64,000 nt of DNA, from the NCBI GenBank assembly GCA_027310565.1, contig DAIDAP010000037.1, positions 256,163 through 320,162 of the forward strand, read 5' to 3'. Positions 20,388 through 47,136 of the stretch are shown piece after piece. How positions within the stretch are numbered: the stretch's first letter is position 1; the number at the start of each line of letters is the position of its first letter. The position numbers were made by a program, and so were the translations under genes. Under the pieces are notes generated by a model. The model was not told the origin of the DNA. It ran no database searches and was given only the letters and a program-made list of their open reading frames with translations. Source of the stretch: Chloroflexota bacterium. Its GTDB lineage: Bacteria; Chloroflexota; Limnocylindria; P2-11E.

Positions 20388-21752
20388 CTACGGAGTGATA
20401 ACGATCGGGGACAACGACGTACCCGTCACCGCGGGCGTGAGCGTATCGGTGACGGTCACGGTGTGCGTCCCTGTCGTGAGGAACGTAACGACGAAGTCAT
20501 GCACTCCCGCGTCCAACCCCGTGAACGTGTAGTCGGCAGGCAAGGTCGCCACTGGATCCGAGCTCGTGAAGCGCACCGTGCCGCGGTAGTCGGTCACCAC
20601 GTTGCCGAACACGTCACGGACAAGCACGTTCAGACCAAGGGGCACGCCCCGGGCACCGCCGCTGCCGATAACCCTGAAGGCGGAAGCCGGACCGCTAGTC
20701 ACGGTGATCGTGTCCGAGGTCCCCGTGACCGCCGCATCGAACGTGTCAGTCGCGATGATCGTGCCCGGGCCAGCGCGCGAGATGCCGAACGCACTCGTGA
20801 AGGTGTGCCTACCGCCGTCGGCGGCGGTGAACGTGTAGTAGGGCGGCACAAAGCCATAGGGGCTCGAGAGGGTGAAGCCGATCGTGCCGCGGTAGTCGCT
20901 CACCGCGTTGCCGAGGCTGTCCAGCGCGGTCACCGTCACGCTGAACCTTTCGCCCGCTGCGACCGTGCTCGGGCTCGCGACCACGCTGAGGCTCGCCGGG
21001 CCCACGGTGATCGAGGCGGCGCCCGAGATGGAGGCATCCAGAACGTCCGTGGCGGAGACCGTCTGCGCGCCTACCGAAACGAGCGTCACGCCGTTCGGCG
21101 GAGCGAAGGTATGCGTGCCGGCGTCTTGCGGGGTGAATGTGTAATCGTGAGGAAGCGTCGCGCCCGGGTCGGTGCTCGTGAAACGGATCCTGCCGCGGTA
21201 CAGGTCCGCGACGTTTCCGAACTGGTCTAGCACGGTGACTGTCACAGTCGTCGCTACGCCTGATCTTGATGCATCCACGACGACCCTGAATCCGAAAGCG
21301 GCCGACGTCGCCGTACCGCTCGGACCGGTCGGTCCGGTTGCGCCGGTGGGACCCGTTGCTCCCGGAGCGCCGGTTGGACCGGTGGGGCCAGTCAGGCCGG
21401 CGGCTCCGGTTGGACCAGTCGCGCCGGCGGCGCCGGTGGGACCGGTCGATCCGGCGGCGCCGGTCGCACCCGTCGCGCCGGTGTCACCCTTTTGCCCGAC
21501 CTGATTCCACGTGATCGCCCGCTCGTTCTTGCCGCACTCCTCGGCCGAGGCGACCAGGCGCAGCTGGCCACTGCGCCCGCCGTCGTCCTTCGGCTTGGCT
21601 GAGCTGTCCTTCTCGTTCTGCTGGACCTGGAAGCATGCGGTGATGACGCCGCCCGGGCCGGGGATCGTGCCGGCGGCGAAGACGCCGCCCGCACCTCCCA
21701 GGACGAAGGCGATGACCCCCACCAGCAGGTAGTGCGCGAACGGATTGCGCAT
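20388..21752 (-). CDS. Secreted/membrane-anchored collagen-like (Gly-X-Thr triple-helix repeat) protein with three Ig-like repeat domains
   Basis: ATG at 21752 ([13 protein letters not shown]...) is preceded by GGGAGGGAG. It has an N-terminal TM/signal, 19 uninterrupted G-X-Y triplets ([13 protein letters not shown]...GPSG), then three ~95-aa repeats ([23 protein letters not shown]...). The first 138 codons of the 592-aa ORF are an artefact. Confidence 0.75.
21300..21480. repeat. Tandem 9-bp (GGNCCGGTN)n repeats encoding the collagen-like Gly-X-Thr tract
   Basis: Direct reading of near-identical 9-mers across ~170 bp. Confidence 0.8.
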
Positions 21753-21807
21753 GCGTTCTCCCTCCCACCCCGACGACTCGACAGGCCCCCGCCGGCGCGC
21801 CCGCGCG

Positions 21808-21950
21808 ATGCTACGCCAGACGCCGTACGGCGCGGTCACGACGTTCCCTCCGTCAGGCGAGAAGCGCCGGCTCAGGGCGCTCGAGCAGGGCGGGCCCACC
21901 AGTACCTGCGCCGGCAGGGCCGCTTCGCACACTTCATCGACGCGGCACAT
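21808..21950 (+). pseudogene. Degenerate, internally deleted partial copy of the 3' part of the oxidoreductase beta gene
   Basis: Three blocks match the beta gene at 19757-19808, 19925-19952 and 20139-20180 at about 85-90% identity, concatenated with the intervening ~120- and ~185-bp segments missing. There is no intact reading frame. Confidence 0.7.
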
Positions 21951-22215
21951 CCGCCTCGCCGCACTCGAATGAGAACGCGCCGGACTCCAGGTCGGCGAGG
22001 AAGACGTCCAGCGCCCGTGCCTTGAGACGGCCCTCGACGAGGTAGCCGATCTCCGCGAGCGTCCAGGCGGGGACGAGATACGGCCCTGCGTCTTCCACGA
22101 ACACCCTCCGCACGCGCTCGTGGTCCGGATCCCGGCGGTCCAGCAGCGCGAGTACCGCGCTCGCATCGAGCCTGATCAGGTGCGGCGCCGCCGGCGCGAC
22201 CAGCGCCGATCCCAC
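21934..22215 (-). pseudogene. C-terminally truncated PIN-domain (VapC-like) toxin gene
   Basis: [52 protein letters not shown]...[18 protein letters not shown] fits the first about two-thirds of a PIN domain (conserved D, E, D positions). The frame terminates exactly where it runs into the oxidoreductase-beta ghost fragment. The upstream partner is a possible decayed RHH/VapB-like ORF (...RLIREALTQYLAG...). Confidence 0.45.
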
Positions 22216-33970: not shown

Positions 33971-35539
33971 TTACGGGCCCTCGTGGTCGTCGTCGGGGAC
34001 GAGCGCGACCGAGTTCGAGAGCGGGTTCAGCGTGCAGTCCGAGCACTCGAGGACGTCGCCGTATTGCCCGCCCCAGAAGCCGCGGATCTCGCTTCCGCTC
34101 ACGAGGCCTTCGTAGAAGGTGAACGGCGCCACGGTGAAGAGATGGACCCGGTCGATCTTTTCGTTCCCGTTCGGGTCGACGTTCGAGCAGTCCGACCCGT
34201 CGCCGATGAGGCTCCACTCCTCGCCGGGCTGACCGGGCGAGTAGGTCTCGGCGCAGTCCCACAGGAACACGATGACGACGAGCCCCTTCCCGTACGGCTT
34301 CCCGGACTTGGTGAACCGGTCCGAGAACGGCGCGTTCGGGTCGCCTTCGCGCTGGATGAGCGAGCGCATGTTGTCCGCGATGTTGTCGCCGAGGTTCCCC
34401 GACGCGAGCGACGTCTCGACCCAGTCGCCCGTCAGCGCGTTGCCCTCGCCGCACGAGGGCGCGAGGTCCGGCCGGCTCTCGTCGTCGCACACGGCACGCT
34501 CGGTGAGCGGCGACGGCTGTTCCTGACCCTCCGGCAGGCTCGCGGAGTCCCACGCCTCGGTCAGCGAAAGCTCGCCGAGGAACGAGTAGTAGAACCAGTT
34601 CGGGATGTCGCACGTCTTGTCGTACTGCTGCGGGTCGTGGCTGCCGGCGGTGTCCCACGGGCCACCGCAGTTGCCCTGGTCGGGCTTGTCCGGCCCATTG
34701 CTGTAGTCCGTCTTCGCCTCCGCGCCGGTGCCGCTCTGATCCCATGACGCGGTCAATTGCGGGACTTCGCCACCCAAGCGCGTCGAGTACCGGGACGGGT
34801 CGATGAGGCCCTTGAAGCTCCCGTAGACGACGTCGTCCTCCCGCGATGACCAAAAGACGGTGGGCTCGACCTCCGTCGGGTCGCAGTCGCCCGGCACGCA
34901 CGGGTTGTCGAAGTCGGCCGGGTCGTAATGGCGCACCATCGGCCAGATCGGGCCCGCGAAGGACGGGACGTTCCCCGAGATTTGTGCCCGGGCGGAGGCG
35001 GCCGCGTCGATCGCCGGCCGCCCGATCACCGACGCCACGAGCGACCGGTACGTCGTGGAGACCGCCACGCGGACGTACACGGTGTCGCCCGGGACGATCT
35101 GGCTACCCGCAGGATCGTCGCAGACGCCGAGCGCCGAGGCGGCCGAGGTCCACACGATCGGATCGGTGTCGCTGCCGAACTGTAGGGTGAACTCCGTCGT
35201 GCTCTCGCGGATCTGGAACGCGTCGTTCGCGTCCACGAAGCGCTTCGCCTCGCACCAGACGTCCTCGCCGTGGACGGCGAACGCGATCCGGTCGTCGACC
35301 AGGATCACCGATGTCGCCAGCTGCCGCGCCGCCCCGAGGGCCGCTGCGTCGGCGGCGGTCTGCAGGACGCGGCGCTGGGTCAGGCCGTAGCCCCAGTCGA
35401 CCGCGAGGGCGAGCGCCCCCAGCAGGACGACGATCGACAGGGCGACGACGACCATCGACTGCCCGGCCTCGGACCCTGTGAGCCGCTTCGTGAGCGATCG
35501 CACGACAGCGATCCTTTCGCCGGGCGGGGCGCGTGCCAA
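33971..35539 (-). CDS. TadG/TadE-like pilus-assembly protein, large pseudopilin-type with extended C-terminal domain
   Basis: N-terminus GQSMVVVALSIVVLLGALALAVDWGYGL...LQTAADAAALGAARQ is the Tad TadE/TadG signature. The protein is about 520 aa. The overlapping 540-aa ORF in another frame is rejected. Confidence 0.65.
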   Translation of the reverse strand: MARAPPGERIAVVRSLTKRLTGSEAGQSMVVVALSIVVLLGALALAVDWGYGLTQRRVLQTAADAAALGAARQLATSVILVDDRIAFAVHGEDVWCEAKRFVDANDAFQIRESTTEFTLQFGSDTDPIVWTSAASALGVCDDPAGSQIVPGDTVYVRVAVSTTYRSLVASVIGRPAIDAAASARAQISGNVPSFAGPIWPMVRHYDPADFDNPCVPGDCDPTEVEPTVFWSSREDDVVYGSFKGLIDPSRYSTRLGGEVPQLTASWDQSGTGAEAKTDYSNGPDKPDQGNCGGPWDTAGSHDPQQYDKTCDIPNWFYYSFLGELSLTEAWDSASLPEGQEQPSPLTERAVCDDESRPDLAPSCGEGNALTGDWVETSLASGNLGDNIADNMRSLIQREGDPNAPFSDRFTKSGKPYGKGLVVIVFLWDCAETYSPGQPGEEWSLIGDGSDCSNVDPNGNEKIDRVHLFTVAPFTFYEGLVSGSEIRGFWGGQYGDVLECSDCTLNPLSNSVALVPDDDHEGP

Positions 35540-35778: not shown

Positions 35779-36441
35779 ATGATCCTGGTCTTCGATCGTG
35801 AGGGCTCCATCTTCCAGCAGCTGCGCGACCTCGACCTGAATCTCCCGCTCTGGCGCGTGAGCGATCCCTCGCGCCTGGACCGCACCAACGACATCGACCT
35901 CGCGATCGTGGCCACGCGGGACCAGCTGCCCTGGGACCTGATGACGAACGCGGACCGGCCCTTCGACACCGTCGTGCTCACGGACCGGTACGACGCCGAC
36001 GAGGCTCTCGAGGCCGCGCTCCACGGGGTCGTCGGCTACCTCGACGCGAGGGCGCCGGCGCCGCTCCTCCGGCGCTCGATCCAGGCGATCCTGCGCGGCG
36101 AGCCCGGATTCACCCGCGCGACGCTCGGTCAATGGGTCCGGCGCCAGCGCTCCTGCTCTCGCGCGCGCCTCAGCTACCGCGGTCTCACCGAGCGCCAGCG
36201 CGAGGTCCTCCGCCTCGTCGCGGATGGTCTCGCCGACAAGGAGATCGCGCAGCGGCTGGGCATCGCGACCGCGACCGCGCAGAAGCACGTGACCAACATC
36301 CTCGAGCGCCTCGGTGTCTCGAATCGCGCGGCCGCGGCGGCGGCGATCTGCTGGCAGGGGCTGGAGGCGCTGTGCTCCACCTGCGAGCGGCCCGCGAGCG
36401 CGTCGGATGCGCGGCCTCGTCTCATGCCCAGCATCGCGTAG
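35779..36441 (+). CDS. LuxR-family response regulator (degenerate receiver plus LuxR HTH)
   Basis: C-terminal LTERQREVLRLVADGLADKEIAQRLGIATATAQKHVTNILERLGV; N-terminal receiver-like domain (MILVFD...). Confidence 0.75.
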   Translation: MILVFDREGSIFQQLRDLDLNLPLWRVSDPSRLDRTNDIDLAIVATRDQLPWDLMTNADRPFDTVVLTDRYDADEALEAALHGVVGYLDARAPAPLLRRSIQAILRGEPGFTRATLGQWVRRQRSCSRARLSYRGLTERQREVLRLVADGLADKEIAQRLGIATATAQKHVTNILERLGVSNRAAAAAAICWQGLEALCSTCERPASASDARPRLMPSIA

Positions 36442-36492: not shown

Positions 36493-37131
36493 ATGTATCG
36501 CGCGCTCGTCGCGTGCCTCGCCGTCGCGGCGGGTCTCGCGCTGAGCATCCAGTCGAGCCCCGGCGCGCCGGCGGCCGTGCCGCCGGTGCCGATCGTGTCA
36601 CCCATGCCGACGATCGCGTCACCGACGCCGCAGGCGATGGCCACGACACCGTTCGGCGCCGCATCGGCGCCTGCGACCCCGTCGGCGACGCCGGAGCCGC
36701 GGAGCATCGAGGGCGTCCACATCGTCATCGAGCGTCTCGCGATCGATCTCCCGCTCGTGTGGGGCGACGTCCAGCGCGATGTACCCCGCGAGGGCTATCC
36801 GGGAGCGACCCCCGAGCGGGTCGCGCTCGTCTTCCCGGGCAGCGCGCTGCCGGGGACCGGCGGGAACACGTACGTCTACTCCCATGCCCGCACCGGCATG
36901 TTCCTGTCGCTGTGGCAGGCGAGGTTCGGCGATCAGGTCGTGCTCCGCTGGCCGGACGGATGGCAGCTGGGCTACGTCGTGACCGAGATCGTCCCCCGCG
37001 TGGATCCGAGCGACACGCGCTGGCTTGACGCGGCAGGCCCGGAGCGCCTCACGCTCCAGACGTCGACCGGTCCCTACCCATGGAATCCGCGCTTCATCGT
37101 GGTCGCCGTCCCACTCGGGAGATCGTCGTGA
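36493..37131 (+). CDS. Sortase-fold protein with Ser replacing the catalytic Cys (TLQTS instead of TLxTC); signal/TM anchor plus Pro/Ala linker
   Basis: Matches the sortase pattern motif by motif: PGTGGNTYVYSHAR (GN..GHR His motif), FGDQVVL, YVVTEI, LTLQTSTGP (Cys-to-Ser position), NPRFIVVA (Arg motif). Paralogue at 46351..47136. Confidence 0.6.
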   Translation: MYRALVACLAVAAGLALSIQSSPGAPAAVPPVPIVSPMPTIASPTPQAMATTPFGAASAPATPSATPEPRSIEGVHIVIERLAIDLPLVWGDVQRDVPREGYPGATPERVALVFPGSALPGTGGNTYVYSHARTGMFLSLWQARFGDQVVLRWPDGWQLGYVVTEIVPRVDPSDTRWLDAAGPERLTLQTSTGPYPWNPRFIVVAVPLGRSS

Positions 37132-37556
37132 CACGACGCCGTATCCGCGTCTGCGTCGTCGACGCGGGTCCGGGTGTCGCCGCCTACCCGCGTCTCGACG
37201 AGTGCGACCTCGAAGTCGTCGGCGCGCTCCCGGGGATCGCGGACGCGCTCCGCGCGCCGATCAGCGACCTCGATCTCGTCATCGTCGGCGCGTTTCCGAG
37301 GGACCTGCGGGACGCCCGCTTCCAGTCGCGGATCACCCGCCTCGCCCGGCGGCTGCCGACGGCGCTCGTCGTGCCGAAAGTCACGCGGCGCGCCGCCATC
37401 GTCGCGGCGAATGCGCGCGTGAGCGCGCTCGTGGTCCGCGACGCGCCGCCGACGACGTTCGTGCACGCGATGCGGGCGGCATTTCGCGGCGAGGTCGCCT
37501 ACCCGCACGAGGCCGTCACGCGCCTCCTCCGGCTCGTCCCAACGCAACCCGTCTGA
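37128..37556 (+). CDS. Hypothetical receiver-like (CheY-fold?) protein
   Basis: VTRRRIRVCVVDAGPG...DLVIVGAF resembles a degenerate REC domain. The GTGA overlap with the upstream gene supports translation. Confidence 0.35.
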   Translation: MTRRRIRVCVVDAGPGVAAYPRLDECDLEVVGALPGIADALRAPISDLDLVIVGAFPRDLRDARFQSRITRLARRLPTALVVPKVTRRAAIVAANARVSALVVRDAPPTTFVHAMRAAFRGEVAYPHEAVTRLLRLVPTQPV

Positions 37557-37640: not shown

Positions 37641-38033
37641 GTGAGCGAACGAGGTCAGAGTCTCGTCGAGGTCGCGATCGCCCTGCCCTTCCTGCTCATC
37701 GTGCTGGTCGGGCTCGTCGATCTCGGGCGCGTCTTCCACTACACGATCGCGGTGGAGACGGGCGTGCGCGAGGGCGCCGCGTACGCGGCGCGGCTGGTGG
37801 CACCCGACGACGACGCGATCCGCCAGCGCATCTGCGAGGCGAGCGGCATCGCCACCGAGGGCGGCCCGTGCGACGGGCTCACCCTCACGGAGGCGCGCGT
37901 CGGCGGCGAGGGCGGGGGCTTCGTCGACGTCATGTACGACCTCGACCTGCTCTTCGGCCACATCCTCCGCTTCGCCGACCCCGGCCCCGTGCACCTGCGC
38001 GCGACCGCGACCTTCCCGAGTCTCGTGAGATGA
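37641..38033 (+). CDS. tadE: TadE-like pseudopilin
   Basis: GQSLVEVAIALPFLLIVLVGLVDLGRVFHYTIAVE (TadE N-terminal motif). GTG 37641. Confidence 0.75.
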   Translation: MSERGQSLVEVAIALPFLLIVLVGLVDLGRVFHYTIAVETGVREGAAYAARLVAPDDDAIRQRICEASGIATEGGPCDGLTLTEARVGGEGGGFVDVMYDLDLLFGHILRFADPGPVHLRATATFPSLVR

Positions 38034-38503
38034 GACGTCCCGTGTCGACCCGCGCGAATGGTTTCGCGAAGGACGTGCGCGGCGTGGCGATCGTCGAGTT
38101 CGCGATCGTCATGCCGATCCTCCTTCTCCTGCTCGTCGGCATTTTCGAGCTGGGACGCGCGTACAACGCGTACGCCACCGTGCGCAGCGCGAGCGCCGAG
38201 GGCGCCCATTGGGCCGCGCTGCACCCCGGCGCGGCGATGTCGGAGATCGAGGCCGCCGTTCTGCGGCGCGTGGTCCCGCTCGACACGCGGCGCGTGTCGG
38301 TCGAGGCCTGGTACGACGACGGCACCGCGTACGTCCGGTGGGATGAGGGCGGCATCCCGGCCTCCGGCCCCAGCAAGCGCATCGTGCCGATCCGTGTCCA
38401 GGTCAGCTATCCCTGGTCCGCCGTGACCTTCCTCTTCAGCAGCGTCCTGCCAGAGCGTTCCGCGACCTTCACCGCGACAACGACCGCCGACGCGATGCGA
38501 TGA
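38030..38503 (+). CDS. TadE-like pseudopilin (second copy)
   Basis: RGVAIVEFAIVMPILLLLLVGIFELGRAYNAYATV. ATGA overlap with the preceding tadE. Confidence 0.75.
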   Translation: MRRPVSTRANGFAKDVRGVAIVEFAIVMPILLLLLVGIFELGRAYNAYATVRSASAEGAHWAALHPGAAMSEIEAAVLRRVVPLDTRRVSVEAWYDDGTAYVRWDEGGIPASGPSKRIVPIRVQVSYPWSAVTFLFSSVLPERSATFTATTTADAMR

Positions 38504-38527: not shown

Positions 38528-39250
38528 GTGCGCGCCTCGAGATCCTGGATCTTCCTCGTCATCGGTGTCGTCCTCGCCGTCGCGACCGGCATCGTCCTCT
38601 ACCAGATCGCGGCGTCGCCGCCCACCGCCCAGGCGACGGTGAACGGGGCGACGGTCAGCATCGTCGTCGCGACGGCGGATATCGCCCCGCGGACCGTGAT
38701 CGCCGCGGACGTGGTGACCATGAAGGCCTACCCGACCGACCTCGTGCCGCCGGGCGCGCTCACCGGCCAGACCGACGCGGTGGGCGCCACCACGAGCATC
38801 CGCATCTCGAAAGGCCAGCCGGTCCTGCGCGACGCGCTCTCGGCGGCGAGCCCGAGCGCGGTGAGCAGCAGCGTGATCCCAGCCGGCAAGGTCATGGTCG
38901 CGTTCCCGACGAACGATCCGCTCACCACCGCCGGCCTCGTGAGCGTCGGCGACCGCGTCGACCTGCTCGCCACCGTCGTCGTCGGCACGGGCGAGGGCAC
39001 GCGGACGACACAGACCACGCTCCAGAACCTCGATGTCGCGGAGGTCATCCTGCCCACGAAGGAACAGCCGCAGCGGGTCCGCTCGCTCGTCTTCGTCGTG
39101 GACCACCAGGTCGCCCTCGTCCTCAAGTACCTGCGCGACGCCGAGACCACCGTCGACCTCACGATCCGATCCCGCGCCGAGACGGCGCTCGTGAAGACGA
39201 CGAAGGTCGATCTCGAGTACCTCGTCAACACGTACGAGATGAAGAAGTGA
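38528..39250 (+). CDS. cpaB: Flp pilus assembly protein CpaB (RcpC-like)
   Basis: N-terminal TM, SAF-like domain (GATVSIVVATADIAPRTVIAADVV) and C-terminal domain typical of CpaB. Confidence 0.75.
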   Translation: MRASRSWIFLVIGVVLAVATGIVLYQIAASPPTAQATVNGATVSIVVATADIAPRTVIAADVVTMKAYPTDLVPPGALTGQTDAVGATTSIRISKGQPVLRDALSAASPSAVSSSVIPAGKVMVAFPTNDPLTTAGLVSVGDRVDLLATVVVGTGEGTRTTQTTLQNLDVAEVILPTKEQPQRVRSLVFVVDHQVALVLKYLRDAETTVDLTIRSRAETALVKTTKVDLEYLVNTYEMKK

Positions 39251-40410
39251 CACGCGAGCGTCTGGTCCACCTCATCGACACGGACACCGGGCTCGCGGTG
39301 CAGCTGCGGGACCCGCTCGCGACGGCGCGGCTGCCCCTCGCGGGCACCCACGCCAACGTCGAGGCGCTCCTCGCGTCGGAGCGGGCCGTGCCGGACGTGG
39401 TGGTCCTCGACTGCGCGGCCACGGGCGGTGAGCCCGCTTCCGCGGTCCGCGCCGTCCTGTCACGGTGGCCGGACATCTGTGTCGTGGTCACCGGCGGCAC
39501 GCCCTCGATGCTGTCGCACGCGGTCACCGCCGGCGCGCGCGGCTTCCTCCTCAAGCCGTACGCGCCCGACGAGCTCGTCGACGTGATCAGCGAGGCGACG
39601 GCCGGGGCCCGAGCGGTACCCCACGTCGAACGGACCGACGGGAAGATCGTCGCGATGTACGGACCGAAGGGCGGATCCGGCTCCTCGACCGTCGCCGTCA
39701 GCCTCGCCGCGCTGCTCGCCGGGCGGCCCGGCCTGTCCGTCGGGCTCGTCGACCTGGATCTGCAGTTCGGCGACGTCGGCGTGCTCCTCGACGTGCGGAC
39801 GCCGAACAGCATCCGGGACCTCGTCCAGCACGAGATCGATGGCGCCCTGGTGGACGACACGTTCGTGCGCCACGGCTGCGGAGCGCGCGTCCTGCCGGCG
39901 CCCGACACGCTCCTCACGAACGGCGCGATCGAGGCCGCCGGCATCGAGCACGCGCTCGAAGGTCTGCGCCCGCACTTCGACGTGATCATCTGCGACCTTG
40001 CGCAGGCGGTCGACGACCTCACGACGCGCGTCCTGCGCCTCGCGGACCTCGTCGTGCTCGTCACGAAGCCGGAGCTCACCGCCCTCAAGAGCCTGAGCCG
40101 TCTCCTCAAAGCGAAGGAGCTCTCGCTCCGGCTCGACGACCACGTCCTCGTCGCGGTGAATCGCCTCCCCTCCCGCGGCGCGCTGAGGCCGAGCGAGGTG
40201 GAGCGCTCCATCGGCCGACCGATCACCGTCGGGATCCCGAGCGATGGCGCGGCCATCGTCGACGCCGCGAACCGCGGCGTCCCCGTGGCCGATCCGCGCG
40301 TCCACTCACGCGCGCACAAGGCGTTCGTCGACCTCGCCTCCGCGGTCGCGCGCGAGCTCGAGCTCGAGCCACCGCAGGCCGGAGGCCCGCGACTGGTGGA
40401 GGTGGCCTAG
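39247..40410 (+). CDS. cpaE: Pilus assembly protein CpaE/TadZ (N-terminal receiver-like domain plus ParA/MinD-type ATPase)
   Basis: Deviant Walker A YGPKGGSGSSTVAVSLA. REC-like N-domain. Confidence 0.8.
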   Translation: MTRERLVHLIDTDTGLAVQLRDPLATARLPLAGTHANVEALLASERAVPDVVVLDCAATGGEPASAVRAVLSRWPDICVVVTGGTPSMLSHAVTAGARGFLLKPYAPDELVDVISEATAGARAVPHVERTDGKIVAMYGPKGGSGSSTVAVSLAALLAGRPGLSVGLVDLDLQFGDVGVLLDVRTPNSIRDLVQHEIDGALVDDTFVRHGCGARVLPAPDTLLTNGAIEAAGIEHALEGLRPHFDVIICDLAQAVDDLTTRVLRLADLVVLVTKPELTALKSLSRLLKAKELSLRLDDHVLVAVNRLPSRGALRPSEVERSIGRPITVGIPSDGAAIVDAANRGVPVADPRVHSRAHKAFVDLASAVARELELEPPQAGGPRLVEVA

Positions 40411-41747
<1,337 letters not shown>

Positions 41748-41751
<4 letters not shown>

Positions 41752-42695
41752 CGCAGGCCGAGATGCTGGCCGTCCTGGGGGCGGCCACCGTCCTCGCGTT
41801 CGTGATCGCGATCTGGGTCCCGACGTTCGCGCGCGCGCGCTCGATGCAGCGACGCCTCGCCGGGTTCGTCGAGAACGGCGAGGTCGCCGTCGACCTCGGC
41901 GGGCAGCGCCGCGAACGTGGCGTCTTCGTCGCCGAGCGTGGCCGCGGCGGCGCGTTCGGGTGGCTGCGCGACCTCATCGGACAGGCCGACGCGGATCTGA
42001 CGCTCGCCGACGTTCTCGTCGCGACCATGGTGCTCGGCGTCTCGGCGGCCGCGGCGGTGGCGATCGTCTGGCTCAACCCGATCGTCGCGGTCGGTGCGGG
42101 GATCGTCGCGGCGGCCGCGCCGCTGCTGTGGCTACGCTGGCGCGCCGGACAGCGCCGTGCGCGGTTCGTGTCGCAGCTGCCCGAGACGATCGAGCTCCTG
42201 GCGACGATGGTCCGCTCGGGCAACACCTTCCTCCAGGCGATGGAGCACGTGGCGTCCGAGTCGCAGGACCCGATGCGCTCCGCGCTGCACGTCGTCGTGC
42301 GCGAGATCGGGCTCGGCGCGTCGCAGGAGGAGGCCCTCGAGCGGCTCCTCGAGCGCTTCCCGTCGGACGACCTCGCGCTCGTCGTCGCGTCGGTGAACGT
42401 CCACCAGCAGACCGGCGGCTCGCTCGCCACCGTCCTCGACCGGATCTCGGAGACCCTGCGCGAACGCATCCGGCTCCAGGGTGACATCCGCGCGTTTACG
42501 GCGATGCAGCGCTACAGCGCCTACGTGCTCGCGGCGCTGCCCGTCGCGGTGGCGGGGATCCTCATGCTCGTCAGCCCTGAGTACATCACCCTGCTCGTCG
42601 CGCCCGGCGCGCTGCGCGTCTTCGCGGCGATCGCCGGGATCGAGATCGTCCTCGGATTCCTGGTGCTTCGGCGGATGGCGGAGATCGATGTTTGA
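41748..42695 (+). CDS. tadB: Tad inner-membrane platform protein TadB
   Basis: T2SSF-like domain. ATGA overlap with cpaF; RBS GGGAGG. Confidence 0.8.
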
Positions 42696-43641
42696 GACGT
42701 TCGGGCTGCAGCTCGCTTCCGAGACCCAGGCCGCGATAGGCGTCGCGCTGCTCGGCGCGCTCGCGATGCTCGCGCTCGCGCTGTGGTGGGCGTTCCGCGG
42801 CGGCGAACGCGAGGCGCGCGCACGCGAGCGCCGACTCGCGATCGTCGTCGGCGAAGCGGAGCAGACCACGGCGGGCGGCGCTCCGACGGCGAAGGGCATC
42901 CCGGCGCTGCAGCGGCTCGCGTCGCTGGTCGGCGCGCTCATGCCCGCCGCGATCGCCGCGCGCACGACCGAGCGCCTCGCGCGGGCGGGCCGTCCCTTCG
43001 GCCTCGAGGCCGCGGACTACCTCGCGCTGCGCGCGCTCAGCACGGTGATCTTCGCCGTCCTCGCCGGTGGCGTCGCCTGGGCCGCCGGGCTCGAACCCGC
43101 GGCGATCGGCCTCGTCGCCCTCGCCGGCGCGCTCCTGGGCTACGCGGTCCCCGGCATCCTGCTCGACCGCGCGATCCGCGGACGCAAGCGCAACATCGTC
43201 CGCGCGATGCCCGCGGCGCTGGACATGCTCGCCCTCTCGACCGCCGCCGGGCTCACGCTCGATGGCGCCATGGCGCAGGTCATCCAGCGGTGGGACACGC
43301 CGCTCGCCGGGGAGCTGCGCCGCTACCTCGCCGAGGTGCAGATGGGGCGCGACCGGCGCGCGTCGCTGCGCGCGATGTCGCGCCGGGTCGGCGTCCAGGA
43401 GGTCACGCGGCTCAATGCGGCGATCATCCAGGCCGACTCGCTCGGACTGCCGATCGCGCAGGTCCTCCGCGAGCAGGCGAACGAGATGCGGCGCATCCGC
43501 CGCCAGCGCGCCGAGGAGGCCGCACGGTCAGCGCCGGTGAAGATGGTGTTCCCGCTCGTGCTGCTCATCTTCCCGGCGCTGTTCGTCGTCGTGCTCGGGC
43601 CAGCGATCCCGCGGATCATGGATCTCTTCACCTCCTACTGA
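42688..43641 (+). CDS. tadC: Tad inner-membrane platform protein TadC
   Basis: T2SSF-like domain, paralogous to tadB. 8-nt overlap with tadB. Confidence 0.8.
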   Translation: MFETFGLQLASETQAAIGVALLGALAMLALALWWAFRGGEREARARERRLAIVVGEAEQTTAGGAPTAKGIPALQRLASLVGALMPAAIAARTTERLARAGRPFGLEAADYLALRALSTVIFAVLAGGVAWAAGLEPAAIGLVALAGALLGYAVPGILLDRAIRGRKRNIVRAMPAALDMLALSTAAGLTLDGAMAQVIQRWDTPLAGELRRYLAEVQMGRDRRASLRAMSRRVGVQEVTRLNAAIIQADSLGLPIAQVLREQANEMRRIRRQRAEEAARSAPVKMVFPLVLLIFPALFVVVLGPAIPRIMDLFTSY

Positions 43642-43794
43642 AGCGACGTACCGAATTCCGCGTACGTCCGCGCCGCCTACCGACTCTCACGAATGGGCGG
43701 CGCATGCGTGCGTGCCTAGCGTCCGAAGGGAATGACGAGAACGCAGGAACGCATCGACACGTGGTCCGCGCCTGCGCGGACAGGGAGAATCCAC

Positions 43795-46290
43795 ATGCGC
43801 AAGGGCCCGCCGCCCCTCCTCATCCTCATGCTCTCGCTGATCCTGGCGATCAGCAGCGCCGCAGCCTCCTTCGCGGTCGCCGCTCCGGACGGAGCGGGTG
43901 TGAACCTCGACCAGTGGGCCAACACAGACGGGGCGTGGCAGAACGGGGACCTGAACAAGAACAACTCGGTCTACGCCGAAGGTGAGGTCGTCCCGTTCCG
44001 CCTCGCGATCGAAGGCCTCACGCCCGGCGTACACACCATCCACCTCAACTGGGACGTGACCGCGAGCGGGCACGCCGCGTACGACTTCCTCGCGAGCTAC
44101 GACGCGACCGAGTCACCGGACCTCTGCGCGGCCGGCGGAGGCGGCGTGTCGTCGCTCTGCCCATCGCTTCCGACCGCATTCCCGCTCGCGATGTTCACCG
44201 ACACGTTCTCCATCGACGGAAAGCCGATCGCGGGCGCGTACGGCTCGACGCCGCGCGTCATGACGCTCTACGGCGTGAGCGCGGCGTCCTTCGGGCCGCC
44301 GACCTACACGGACGGCGCGCACTCCTCCGGTGACGTCGAGCTGACGTTCACCGCGAGCGGGACCGCTGTCCTCCTCGCCTGGGGCGGCCACATCGCCGCG
44401 ACGTCGTACTGGGGCCCCGACGTACCGCAGGGCGCGGGCATGGTCTCGGGCGCTCCGTGGCACATGCGCACGCAGTCGCTGGACGGCGGCGGCCAGAGCA
44501 ATCAGGACCGCAGCATCCAGACGAGCGCGCTGCCCGACCCGGTCATCCGGATCGTGAAGTACCAGGACACGAACGGTGACGGCGACCGCGACGCCGGCGA
44601 GCCCGGCCTCGCGGGATGGAGCTTCACGATCTACGACTCCGCGCAGCACGATGAAGGCACATACAGCACCGGCACGGACGGCACGGACGGCACGGTGACC
44701 GTCACCATGCGTGACGCCGACACCTACACCGTCGTGGAGGACCTCCAGACCGGGTGGACGAACACGGATCCGGGCACCGGCTCGGAGACGGCCGTCGCGC
44801 CGCGCGGCACGACGACGGAGCTCGTCTTCGGCAACAGGTTCACCGAGGTGCCCGAGAACGGCACCGTCCAGGTCTACAAGTACAACGACGAGAACGGCGA
44901 CGGCGATGACGAGGACGGGGCGGACCCGGCCATCGCGGGCTGGGACTTCACGGTCCAGGCCGTCGTCGAGGGCACGCCCACCGGACCGACCTACGATCTC
45001 ATCACGGGGTCCGATGGCTACACCGACGTGCTCGAGCTCGCACCGGGCACGTACGGTGTCTGCGAAACGCTCGGCGAAGGCTGGACGAATACCTACCCGG
45101 GCTCGCAGGACGCCACCGTCTGCTGGGAGACACTCGTCGAGCCGGACCAGGACGCCATCCTCACGTTCGGCAACCACTACACCGCGCCGCCCGAGAACGG
45201 CACCCTCCGCGTCTTCAAGTACGACGACATCGACAACGACGGGTCGCGTGCCGAAGGCGAGCCGGGCCTCTCCGGCTGGCGCTTCACCGTCGAGCCGATG
45301 GTCGAGATCAGCACGCTCGAGAGCCTCATCCTGACGACCGGCTCCAGCCCGCTCGGACGCGGCACGCTGTCGCTGCCCGAAGGCTGGTACGAGGTCTGCG
45401 AGCAGAGCCCGCTCCCGACGGGCTGGAGCAACACCGACCCCGGCGACGGACTGTGCAACAGCGTGTACGTCCCTGAGGGCCAGGACAGCGACGTCCTCTA
45501 CTTCGGCAACCACTACACGCCGACGCCGACTCCGACGCCGCAGGACGGGACGCTCCAGGTCACGAAGTACAACGACACCGACCGCAACGGCACGCGCGGC
45601 ACCTCTGAACCCGGGCTTGCCGGCTGGGCCTTCCGGGTCTACAGCGGCACGACCCTCCTGACGACGCTCACGACCGACGCGAACGGTGTGGCAGCCATCG
45701 GGCTCGTCGCCGGTACCTACACGGTGACCGAGGTCACCCAGACCGGGTGGACGAACACCGAACCCGGTGGAACGACACCGACGAAGACGGCGACCGTGGT
45801 CGCCGGACAGGTCACCGGGGTCATCTTCGGCAACGCCGTGGTGATCATCCCGCCGACGACTCAGACGCAGCTCGTGATCACGAAGTACGCCGACGGCAAC
45901 CGCAACGGCGCGCGCGACACGGGTGAGGGCGTCCTCGCCGGCTTCACCTTCACCATCCGTGACAGCGCGGGCACCGTGGTCCGGACGGTCGTCAGCGGTG
46001 CTGACGGCACGGCGACGGTCACCGGACTCGCGCTCGGCGCGTACAGCATCACCGAGGAGGCGACAACGGGCTGGGTGAACACCGACCCCGGTGCCGCCGC
46101 GGGCGCGCGCAAGTTCGTGACGTTCACGAGCACCGCCACCTCGGCGACGGTCATCTTCGGCAACGCGCAGGTCCAGCTGCCCTCGACGTCGACGTCCGAG
46201 GACGGGATGGTGCTTCTGCTCCTCGCGCTCCTCGCGGGCGTCGGGCTGGCCCTGCCCTTCGCCGCACGGCGGGGGCCGCGCATGGCATAG
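43795..46290 (+). CDS. Large surface adhesin: signal peptide, ~250-aa N-domain, five SdrD-B/CnaB-like repeats, C-terminal sorting-signal-like tail
   Basis: ATG 43795 follows the RBS GGGAGA. Signal MRKGPPPLLILMLSLILAISSAAA. Repeats: VKYQDTNGDGDRDAGEPGLAGWSFTIYDS, VYKYNDENGDGDDEDG...AGWDFTV, VFKYDDIDNDGSRAEGEPGLSGWRFTV, VTKYNDTDRNGTRGTSEPGLAGWAFRV, ITKYADGNRNGARDTGEGVLAGFTFTI. C-terminus: QLPSTSTSEDG-MVLLLLALLAGVGLALPFAA-RRGPRMA. Confidence 0.8.
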   Translation: MRKGPPPLLILMLSLILAISSAAASFAVAAPDGAGVNLDQWANTDGAWQNGDLNKNNSVYAEGEVVPFRLAIEGLTPGVHTIHLNWDVTASGHAAYDFLASYDATESPDLCAAGGGGVSSLCPSLPTAFPLAMFTDTFSIDGKPIAGAYGSTPRVMTLYGVSAASFGPPTYTDGAHSSGDVELTFTASGTAVLLAWGGHIAATSYWGPDVPQGAGMVSGAPWHMRTQSLDGGGQSNQDRSIQTSALPDPVIRIVKYQDTNGDGDRDAGEPGLAGWSFTIYDSAQHDEGTYSTGTDGTDGTVTVTMRDADTYTVVEDLQTGWTNTDPGTGSETAVAPRGTTTELVFGNRFTEVPENGTVQVYKYNDENGDGDDEDGADPAIAGWDFTVQAVVEGTPTGPTYDLITGSDGYTDVLELAPGTYGVCETLGEGWTNTYPGSQDATVCWETLVEPDQDAILTFGNHYTAPPENGTLRVFKYDDIDNDGSRAEGEPGLSGWRFTVEPMVEISTLESLILTTGSSPLGRGTLSLPEGWYEVCEQSPLPTGWSNTDPGDGLCNSVYVPEGQDSDVLYFGNHYTPTPTPTPQDGTLQVTKYNDTDRNGTRGTSEPGLAGWAFRVYSGTTLLTTLTTDANGVAAIGLVAGTYTVTEVTQTGWTNTEPGGTTPTKTATVVAGQVTGVIFGNAVVIIPPTTQTQLVITKYADGNRNGARDTGEGVLAGFTFTIRDSAGTVVRTVVSGADGTATVTGLALGAYSITEEATTGWVNTDPGAAAGARKFVTFTSTATSATVIFGNAQVQLPSTSTSEDGMVLLLLALLAGVGLALPFAARRGPRMA

Positions 46291-46350: not shown

Positions 46351-47136
46351 CTATCGCGTCGGAGCTGCCTGCACGATGAGCACCGGCCCGCACGCGTCCG
46401 GGCTGAGGCTCGTCTGCATCGAGAGCGGCGCGAGGGGAAGCGGCGGCGGCTCGCAGCTGCGCACGATGAGCGCGCCTGTGATCACGTACCTCGTCCCGTA
46501 CGCCCACACCGCGTCGCCGGCCCGCCACCCGGCGATCCGCCCGAACTGGGTGTAGGCGTGCCCCATCAGGTACTGCGGAGAGAGGCACAGGAAAGAGCGG
46601 ATCGCCGTGCCGATGTCCGTGCCACCCGCGCAGTCGTTGTACGGGACGATCGCCCCGCGCACATCGACGCGCGGATAGCAGAACCAGTCCGGCGGACACG
46701 TCTCGGCCGCCGCCGGTGCTGCCGCGGTCGGCGCGGCAGTGGGGGCCGGGCTCGGTGCGAGCGTCGGCACGGTGGTCGGCACTACGGCCGCGATCGACGG
46801 GCTGGGCACGGGATTCGCGCTCGACGCCGCGGCGCTCGGGGCGGGCGCGCCCGACGGCGCCGCCGACGGTGCAGCGCGCAGGGCGATCCCATCGTCGCCC
46901 GCGAATCGCACGGCGTCTTCGAGATCCACCGAGCTGTCCGGCAATTGCCGGAGGGTCGGCACCAGCGCCGCCGTCCCGGCGCCGGCCGTGTCGTCGACGA
47001 GGGCGGCCGAGGCGGGCGGGGCGTCGTTGCCGGCGAGGATGACGGCGATGAGGAGGCCGAGCACGGTCAGGGCGCCGCCGGCGTGACGACGTGCGGCTCG
47101 TCGCCGCGCCGCGGGCAAGTGCATGTGACCGCACAT
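46351..47136 (-). CDS. Sortase-fold protein paralogue, also with Ser at the catalytic Cys position (SMQTS)
   Basis: LMGHAYTQF (His motif), AGDAVWAYG, RYVITGALIV, PLSMQTSLSP, GPVLIVQA. N-terminal TM anchor and Pro/Ala-rich linker like the 36493 paralogue. Start ambiguous among M1, M12 and M16. Confidence 0.55.
   Translation of the reverse strand: MCGHMHLPAARRRAARRHAGGALTVLGLLIAVILAGNDAPPASAALVDDTAGAGTAALVPTLRQLPDSSVDLEDAVRFAGDDGIALRAAPSAAPSGAPAPSAAASSANPVPSPSIAAVVPTTVPTLAPSPAPTAAPTAAAPAAAETCPPDWFCYPRVDVRGAIVPYNDCAGGTDIGTAIRSFLCLSPQYLMGHAYTQFGRIAGWRAGDAVWAYGTRYVITGALIVRSCEPPPLPLAPLSMQTSLSPDACGPVLIVQAAPTR

Follow-up and report, generated by a model that had tools for sequence, protein, structure and literature searches.

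A stretch of 64,000 nucleotides from a Chloroflexota bacterium (assembly GCA_027310565.1, contig DAIDAP010000037.1, positions 256,163 to 320,162; hereafter the window) contains a gene, named here Ser-sortase, whose product is predicted to have a sortase fold with serine at the site of the catalytic cysteine. We consider it rather probable that this protein is an active sortase with a serine nucleophile. Of an active enzyme and a pseudo-sortase, the comparative evidence favours the former. A wider picture, put forward more tentatively, is that of a natural serine-sortase lineage in which Ser exchanges freely with Cys in evolution, which would have a sorting signal of a new kind, LP[SN]T[SA]T, and supply the main surface-protein anchoring enzymes of the Limnocylindria, with one paralogue and a second, divergent Ser sortase-fold protein dedicated to a Tad-pilus adhesion island.

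Fold and putative active site of the Ser-sortase

The gene and its putative active-site codons are as follows.

36493..37131, plus strand: Ser-sortase gene, 212 aa (open reading frame (ORF), third-position GC, Pfam Sortase match, AlphaFold2 model, Foldseek)
36883..36885, plus strand: codon CAT of His131, putative general base at the end of predicted beta4 (Y-V-Y-S-H; invariance, spacing)
37063..37065, plus strand: codon TCG of Ser191, at the site of the sortase catalytic Cys (TLQT-S versus TLxT-C; alignments to solved sortases, invariance, synonymous codon use)
37090..37092, plus strand: codon CGC of Arg200, at the site of the sortase catalytic Arg (SrtA R197; alignments, invariant in its own clade)

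The product consists of a hydrophobic N-terminal helix (residues 2-20), a Pro/Ala-rich linker (approximately 21-70) and the sortase domain (approximately 73-208). It is encoded by a real gene. The same protein is called on three public contigs; third-position GC in the ORF reaches 0.88, and the window as a whole has 71% GC. The three strings in which an earlier note on this DNA had recognised sortase motifs, PGTGGNTYVYSHAR, LTLQTS and NPRFIVVA, all lie within this ORF.

The Pfam Sortase family PF04203 matched residues 77-206 (E=1.2e-13; 51.3 bits, gathering score 26.6). Mean pLDDT was 84 in an AlphaFold2 model for which 48 homologues were used, most of the domain being above 90. The best 50 Foldseek matches of this model in the PDB comprised sortases only, spread over classes A, C, D and E (probability 1.0, E ~2e-8). 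The profile match and the model thus bear out the sortase fold proposed in the earlier note. The note had also placed the protein among the class E/F sortases, and this assignment did not survive: the protein scored 20.5 bits with the NCBIfam class E model NF033747 (cutoff 160) and 14.8 bits with the class F model NF033748 (cutoff 166), and was far below every NCBIfam class A-F and GN sortase model. By its profile scores, the Ser-sortase is a member of the sortase superfamily outside classes E and F and outside any named class.

The putative active site was mapped by three comparisons, namely phmmer against the PDB, the family profile (hmmsearch) against the PDB, and hhalign against S. aureus SrtA. 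In all three, LTLQT-S191 fell on the (I/L)TLxT-Cys of solved sortases and P-R200-F on the catalytic Arg of the Listeria, S. aureus and class C enzymes; in Listeria SrtA, for example, RITLITC...KRFVAV corresponds to rltLqtS...PRFivvA of the Ser-sortase. No Cys is conserved elsewhere in the family, as examined in an alignment of 48 sequences. The histidine is likely, although not proven, to be the counterpart of SrtA His120, because His131 is invariant, directly follows the predicted strand 125-130 of the AlphaFold2 model, and has the same Asn-to-His spacing (N125-H131 in G-N-T-Y-V-Y-S-H, N114-H120 in Q-N-I-S-I-A-G-H of SrtA, read from the sequences). The alignments and the invariance therefore agree with the earlier description of Ser in place of the catalytic Cys with His and Arg retained, the His at the strength just given.

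The string LPGTG occurs inside the Ser-sortase itself (36847-36861, residues 119-123), in the loop that precedes beta4. Homologues have PG.G there, without conservation as LPXTG, and the string looks like chance.

Conservation and selection

The Ser-sortase has 870 homologous clusters at E<=1e-3, and TLQTS was present in 120/120 of the matches listed from these. H131-A-R133, T187-L-Q-T-S-T-G193 and P199-R-F201 are invariant in the alignment of 48 sequences, which are approximately 50-60% identical to the Ser-sortase. The Ser191 codon was TCG in 68, TCC in 18 and TCA in 1 of 87 genes, a variation that reads as synonymous drift under amino-acid constraint. By the Nei-Gojobori method, dN/dS was 0.05-0.1 in pairs with unsaturated dS (0.3-0.8), and its median over 971 pairs was 0.20. 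The codons and substitution rates indicate that Ser at position 191 is under selection and not in decay, as the earlier note had argued; an isolated decaying pseudogene is ruled out by the 870 homologues, the invariant motifs and the dN/dS of 0.05-0.1.

These data also bear on a second explanation, which we regard as unlikely, that the protein is a conserved pseudo-sortase. Catalysis would have been lost, and the protein would serve as a non-covalent receptor, chaperone or scaffold, holding LPxTS-tailed adhesins or assisting the Tad machine in a structural or regulatory capacity. Pseudoenzymes usually relax their catalytic residues, whereas here His, Ser, Thr190 and Gln189 do not vary, nor does Arg within this clade. 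Nor is selection relaxed at the dN/dS given above, and His is equally kept in the Ser and the Cys groups of the wider branch.

At least 568 loci of the family were found in the species-representative genomes scanned. Metagenome-assembled genomes (MAGs) of 'Candidatus Limnocylindria' or other Chloroflexota contain nearly all of them, often in several copies per genome, the taxon of each locus being the label of its MAG record. A few members come from contigs that were assigned to Bathyarchaeia, Saccharimonadales, Dormiibacterota, Acidiferrales or Solirubrobacteraceae (L017, L019, L030, L033, L039, L054, L073 and L078; L numbers are our labels for loci). Because they are approximately 50% identical to Limnocylindria genes and have the same synteny, mis-binning of these contigs seems likelier than wide transfer.

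Interchange of Cys and Ser in the wider branch

A wider search among cluster representatives at 50% identity returned 563 proteins at E<=1e-3, and the motifs were read in the best 150. The closest of these all have LQTST; from about E=1e-22 downwards, LQTC[TNL] and LQTS[TEQL] are mixed. In a neighbor-joining tree of 115 short domains (59 Cys, 52 Ser), which is crude and leaves the number of transitions uncertain, the Ser forms fall into at least five separate positions, and several of these lie inside groups of Cys forms. His is kept in 54/55 Ser-type and 57/57 Cys-type relatives, and Thr190 in all of both groups. The unclassified 'Y-x-Y-A-H-A-R ... LQTC' sortases (for example P0180, P0150 and P0175) share the HAR and LQT-x motifs and the domain length of the Ser-sortase; these sisters differ from it in keeping Cys, and almost always have the Arg (55/57).

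The interchange is seen most closely in the pair P0165 (LQTSL) and P0180 (LQTCL), which have 59% identity. Both are found in one and the same three-gene arrangement, made up of an NMT1-like gene, a fusion of a Big_1 domain with a sortase, and DUF4012, the neighbours being 44-56% identical. The two fusions are located as follows.

L090:2208-3095: Big_1+sortase fusion, Ser version
L091:4657-5550: Big_1+sortase fusion, Cys version

Both share the synteny and the Big_1 fusion, and both have the same LPxTS motif, an internal GGLP[AK]TSV between the Big_1 and sortase domains with no transmembrane (TM) helix after it. This architecture suggests self-processing, or the fusion of a substrate with its enzyme. 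At another locus (L083, 8287-11544) the Big_1 domain is a separate gene that ends in an LPNTST sorting signal.

Orthologues that differ in Cys versus Ser with the rest conserved would be expected if both residues act as the nucleophile, and from the alignments Cys and Ser look interchangeable in the HAR...LQT[CS] branch. The alternation within one synteny is hard to reconcile with a pseudo-sortase, in which only the Cys forms would be enzymes. The Cys-bearing sisters are also below every NCBIfam class-specific cutoff, which makes the whole branch an unclassified sortase lineage.

Sorting signals and candidate substrates

Three features of the window are relevant to the choice of substrate.

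43732..46290, plus strand: SdrD_B/SpaA-repeat adhesin, 852 aa, candidate substrate (Pfam; C-terminal signal)
46177..46290, plus strand: adhesin sorting signal, LPSTST-SEDG, hydrophobic helix, ARRGPRMA (read from the sequence)
20388..22166, minus strand: collagen-like protein (GXY repeats at 21309-21497)

The adhesin is the only ORF of the window with an LPxT-type motif, a C-terminal TM helix and a basic tail. Its tail reads ...FGNAQVQLPSTSTSEDG-MVLLLLALLAGVGLALPFA-ARRGPRMA, that is, QLPSTSTSEDG followed by the TM helix and the basic residues, and 5/5 database homologues of its C-terminal 181 residues likewise end in LPSTST, a spacer, a TM helix and a basic tail. The earlier suggestion that this protein, with its LPSTS-type tail, is a substrate is thus plausible. 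Among other Tad-island adhesins, L009 and L087 have LPSTST and L089 has LPNTST; the L087 ORF as called ends before any TM helix. The collagen-like protein, the other substrate proposed in the note, was rejected: it has no C-terminal sorting signal, is anchored by an N-terminal hydrophobic segment and lies 15 kb away. It comprises 21 Gly-X-Y triplets and repeated Ig-like segments, and ends ...SPIVITP. None of the window's Tad proteins contains an LPxT[SAG] motif, which rejects them as substrates.

At three loci without a Tad island, a secreted protein with such a signal is encoded directly upstream of a Ser-sortase on the same strand: an Ice_binding protein with LPSTAT (L074, the two genes overlapping by 20 nt), an Ice_binding protein with LPSTST (L085) and a Big_1 protein with LPNTST (L083). 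Gene pairs of enzyme and substrate are the classical signature of dedicated sortases. With the window adhesin and these three, 12 independent LP[SN]T[SA]T signals were found. In 1.3 Mb of family loci, a sample biased by every locus having been chosen for carrying a family member, there are 88 Ser-type sortase-domain ORFs, and the sole Cys-type ORF is one deliberately included. Dedicated pairs with no Cys sortase nearby are a further point against the pseudo-sortase.

The signals raise a third explanation, which we hold to be quite improbable, that the protein is a serine endopeptidase only. It would release the protein from its membrane anchor, with no transfer to the wall, by cutting either the LP[SN]T[SA]T signal or, in the Big_1-sortase fusions, the linker. 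The ready hydrolysis of an oxy-ester intermediate fits this reading, as does the self-processing suggested by the internal GGLP[AK]TSV with no TM helix after it. The signals, however, keep the full tripartite architecture of motif, TM helix and basic tail that retains substrates for transpeptidation, and Ser acyl-enzymes do support transpeptidation in penicillin-binding proteins.

The Tad island and other gene neighborhoods

The Ser-sortase gene of the window is part of a Tad locus, the members of which, beyond those listed above, are given here.

33971..35539, minus strand: TadG-like pseudopilin gene, divergently transcribed (Pfam PF13400; synteny kept in L004 and L006-L009)
35779..36441, plus strand: LuxR/GerE-type regulator directly upstream of the Ser-sortase (Pfam GerE; conserved synteny)
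37128..37556, plus strand: orf142, 142 aa, GTG start (overlap with the Ser-sortase stop; conserved)
37641-38033, plus strand: TadE (Pfam TadE)
38030-38503, plus strand: second TadE (Pfam TadE)
38528-39250, plus strand: RcpC/CpaB (Pfam RcpC)
39247-40410, plus strand: TadZ/CpaE (Pfam AAA_31/ParA and Response_reg)
40411-41751, plus strand: TadA/CpaF ATPase (Pfam T2SSE)
41748-42695, plus strand: TadB (Pfam T2SSF)
42688-43641, plus strand: TadC (Pfam T2SSF)
46351..47064 (..47169 with an upstream start), minus strand: second Ser gene with a predicted sortase fold, 237 aa, highly divergent; transcribed convergently with the adhesin gene
46558-46560, minus strand: codon of His169 of the second gene
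46408-46410, minus strand: codon AGC of Ser219 of the second gene

The order of the island is TadG-like (minus strand), GerE, Ser-sortase, orf142, two TadE, RcpC, TadZ, TadA, TadB, TadC, adhesin and second sortase-fold gene (minus strand). It recurs in L004, L006-L009, L019 and L026, and the synteny is kept in approximately 10 loci. In a tree of 85 genomic copies, likewise built by neighbor-joining on short domains, the Tad-linked Ser-sortases form one clade, and about 70 of 80 genomic loci of the family are not Tad-linked. The earlier note had embedded the gene in the Tad pilus system; for the window copy this is confirmed by the Pfam matches, and the association is real and old, but it belongs to one paralogue lineage and not to the family as a whole.

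The Ser-sortase gene starts 51 bp 3' of the LuxR/GerE regulator gene, and its stop overlaps the GTG start of orf142 (GTGA, 37128-37131), by which orf142 is translationally coupled to it. The small gene matched no Pfam family. It is conserved in all Tad-linked loci (tblastn) and matches the N-terminal receiver-like part of the LuxR/GerE gene in L006; its product may be a stand-alone pseudo-receiver. The position of the Ser-sortase between two regulator-like genes is one of the points in favour of a pseudo-sortase.

The second sortase-fold gene contains LSMQTS. The earlier note had taken it for a paralogue sharing the QTS change with the Ser-sortase. That it is a further QTS gene with the sortase fold stands, the fold being shown by structure prediction and fold search only. 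It is not an ordinary paralogue by sequence: its product has no Pfam match, and similarity to the Ser-sortase is not significant (BLASTP E=4.4, hhalign probability 3%). It belongs to a separate conserved family, comprising 102 clusters, in which H169-A-Y-T, G-D, Q-T-S219-L and six Cys are invariant and no Arg is found at the canonical position. Lack of this Arg is again what a pseudo-sortase in the island would lead one to expect. The Ser codon of this family is AGC in 5/5 genes examined, against TCN in the Ser-sortase family. As both are one step from TGC, the simplest reading of the shared QTS is probably two independent changes from Cys to Ser, which argues for separate origins. The second gene is always convergent with an adhesin or an Flp pilin gene at the end of the Tad locus.

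A search by regular expression and tblastn found no Flp pilin gene in or near the window's Tad island, which must draw on a pilin gene located elsewhere. The locus proteins scanned showed no prepilin peptidase domain, no search of the window having been aimed at an A24 peptidase. The Flp of the related loci L040, L044, L088 and L089 is very conserved (…GQGLVEYALIIAIIAIAVIVAMIFLRDQ…NIGNNLT), and in L088 and L089 its gene adjoins the second sortase-fold gene.

Two further observations concern the Tad loci. TadC is fused to VWA domains (approximately 635-650 aa) in L004:14219-16129, L006:15527- and L087:9829-11733; the window TadC has T2SSF only. Two contigs of the MAG SMAG_U440 overlap at their ends inside the adhesin gene (L007:14761-16175 and L009:2-328), and this genome seems to have two tandem Tad islands, each with a Ser-sortase; in between are the adhesin, one gene of 390 aa and the second sortase-fold gene.

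Outside the Tad islands, in a survey of neighbouring ORFs filtered by third-position GC, the commonest neighborhood consists of nuoM/N-like genes, two small membrane proteins, an M24 peptidase (minus strand), the Ser-sortase (plus strand) and a secreted RlpA-like DPBB_1 protein (plus strand). It was seen in L005:6860-8226 and in approximately 46 of the loci L010-L086, with an M23 peptidase and SpoIID sometimes close. The Ser-sortase adjoining RlpA looks like a housekeeping copy.

These contexts are the basis of a fourth explanation, which we consider very improbable, that the family acts not on proteins with sorting signals but on the cell wall itself or on Tad components, for example by remodelling peptidoglycan peptides for the passage of the pilus. 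The commonest paralogue context, with its RlpA-like protein and M24, M23 and SpoIID neighbors, would suit such a role, and so would the place of the Tad-linked copy among pseudopilin genes; housekeeping sortases, however, typically have no adjacent substrates. Neither TadE, TadG nor any other Tad protein has an LPxT motif, the Flp pilins of related loci contain no Lys, sorting signal or pilin motif, and the LP[SN]T[SA]T proteins encoded in direct operon pairs with the enzyme suggest that the substrates are proteins.

Proposed mechanism

In the mechanism that we propose, the Ser-sortase would be a membrane-anchored, extracytoplasmic enzyme in which Ser191 replaces the nucleophilic Cys, and His131 and Arg200 are kept. 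It would recognise the C-terminal LP[SN]T[SA]T of a precursor held in the membrane by the spacer, TM helix and basic tail that follow. Ser191, activated by His131, would attack this signal, probably after the Thr, with Arg200 positioning the substrate. An oxy-ester acyl-enzyme would form, as in penicillin-binding proteins, instead of the thio-ester of sortases, to be resolved either by transpeptidation to a cell-envelope amine or by hydrolysis. The window copy belongs to a monophyletic paralogue lineage that travels with the Tad pilus island in 'Ca. Limnocylindria'-type Chloroflexota, and its most likely client would be the SdrD/SpaA-repeat adhesin with LPSTST that closes the island.

Several points weigh against this proposal. 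The engineered C184S variant of S. aureus SrtA loses most of its activity and is nearly inactive (PMC4827206), which also speaks for a pseudo-sortase; a Ser sortase would for this reason need compensating features, and we identified none. The Arg position of the 55 Ser forms is Arg in 29, Lys in 16 and Glu in 8, and this change to Lys or Glu in some Ser subclades would equally fit a loss of catalysis. The profile alignments of the His segment disagree between tools, with His131 placed 2 or 6 residues off. The adhesin immediately adjoins the other sortase-fold gene (46351..47064) and not the Ser-sortase, so that the pairing of the window Ser-sortase with the adhesin is uncertain. Canonical Cys sortases elsewhere in these genomes might also do the sorting instead.

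Relation to known systems

By definition, by classification (MEROPS C60) and as drug targets, sortases are cysteine transpeptidases; protein ligation relies on them as a standard tool. As judged from its sequence, the Ser-sortase is homologous to them, yet it fails one defining feature of the family, the Cys nucleophile. In common with known members (PF04203, including class E SrtE of Thermobifida fusca and Streptomyces, and classes D and C) it has the predicted eight-stranded beta-barrel, the N-terminal membrane anchor and linker, a likely counterpart of the His at the end of beta4, the TLxT-X nucleophile strand and an Arg on beta8, and genes of both are paired with those of proteins having an LPxT-type motif, a TM helix and a basic tail. 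The differences are the Ser at the nucleophile position, the class scores far below the NCBIfam cutoffs, the signal LP[SN]T[SA]T, in which Ser/Ala-Thr takes the place of the Gly of LPXTG or LAXTG, and the host, an uncultured class of Chloroflexota.

A dedicated sortase paralogue inside a pilus or adhesin island, here with a candidate adhesin substrate, recalls the class C sortases of sortase-pilus islands. The window pilus is of the Tad type (type IVc), however, assembled by an ATPase machine and not by sortase polymerization, and the Flp pilins of related loci do not have the sorting signal or the pilin motif. Two analogies are mechanistic only, with unrelated folds and no homology claimed. 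Penicillin-binding proteins carry out DD-transpeptidation through a Ser oxy-ester, and the proteases of clan PA show natural swaps of Ser and Cys nucleophiles on one fold.

We found no description of natural Ser sortases or of links between sortases and Tad systems in the searchable full-text literature, with subscription-only articles and MEROPS comments such as 'non-peptidase homologue' lists outside its scope, and the source database annotates proteins of the family as plain 'sortase'. The family is apparently undescribed, as the earlier note had supposed. The Tad island with an LPSTST-tailed adhesin and two sortase-fold genes is a recurring link that this literature does not describe for Tad systems.

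If the Ser-sortase is an active enzyme, the sortase fold would support oxy-ester chemistry, which the Cys/Ser swaps between orthologues make plausible, and the family could provide ligases insensitive to oxidation and thiol reagents, with a new recognition motif. It would also indicate how an abundant uncultured class of soil and freshwater Chloroflexota anchors its surface proteins.

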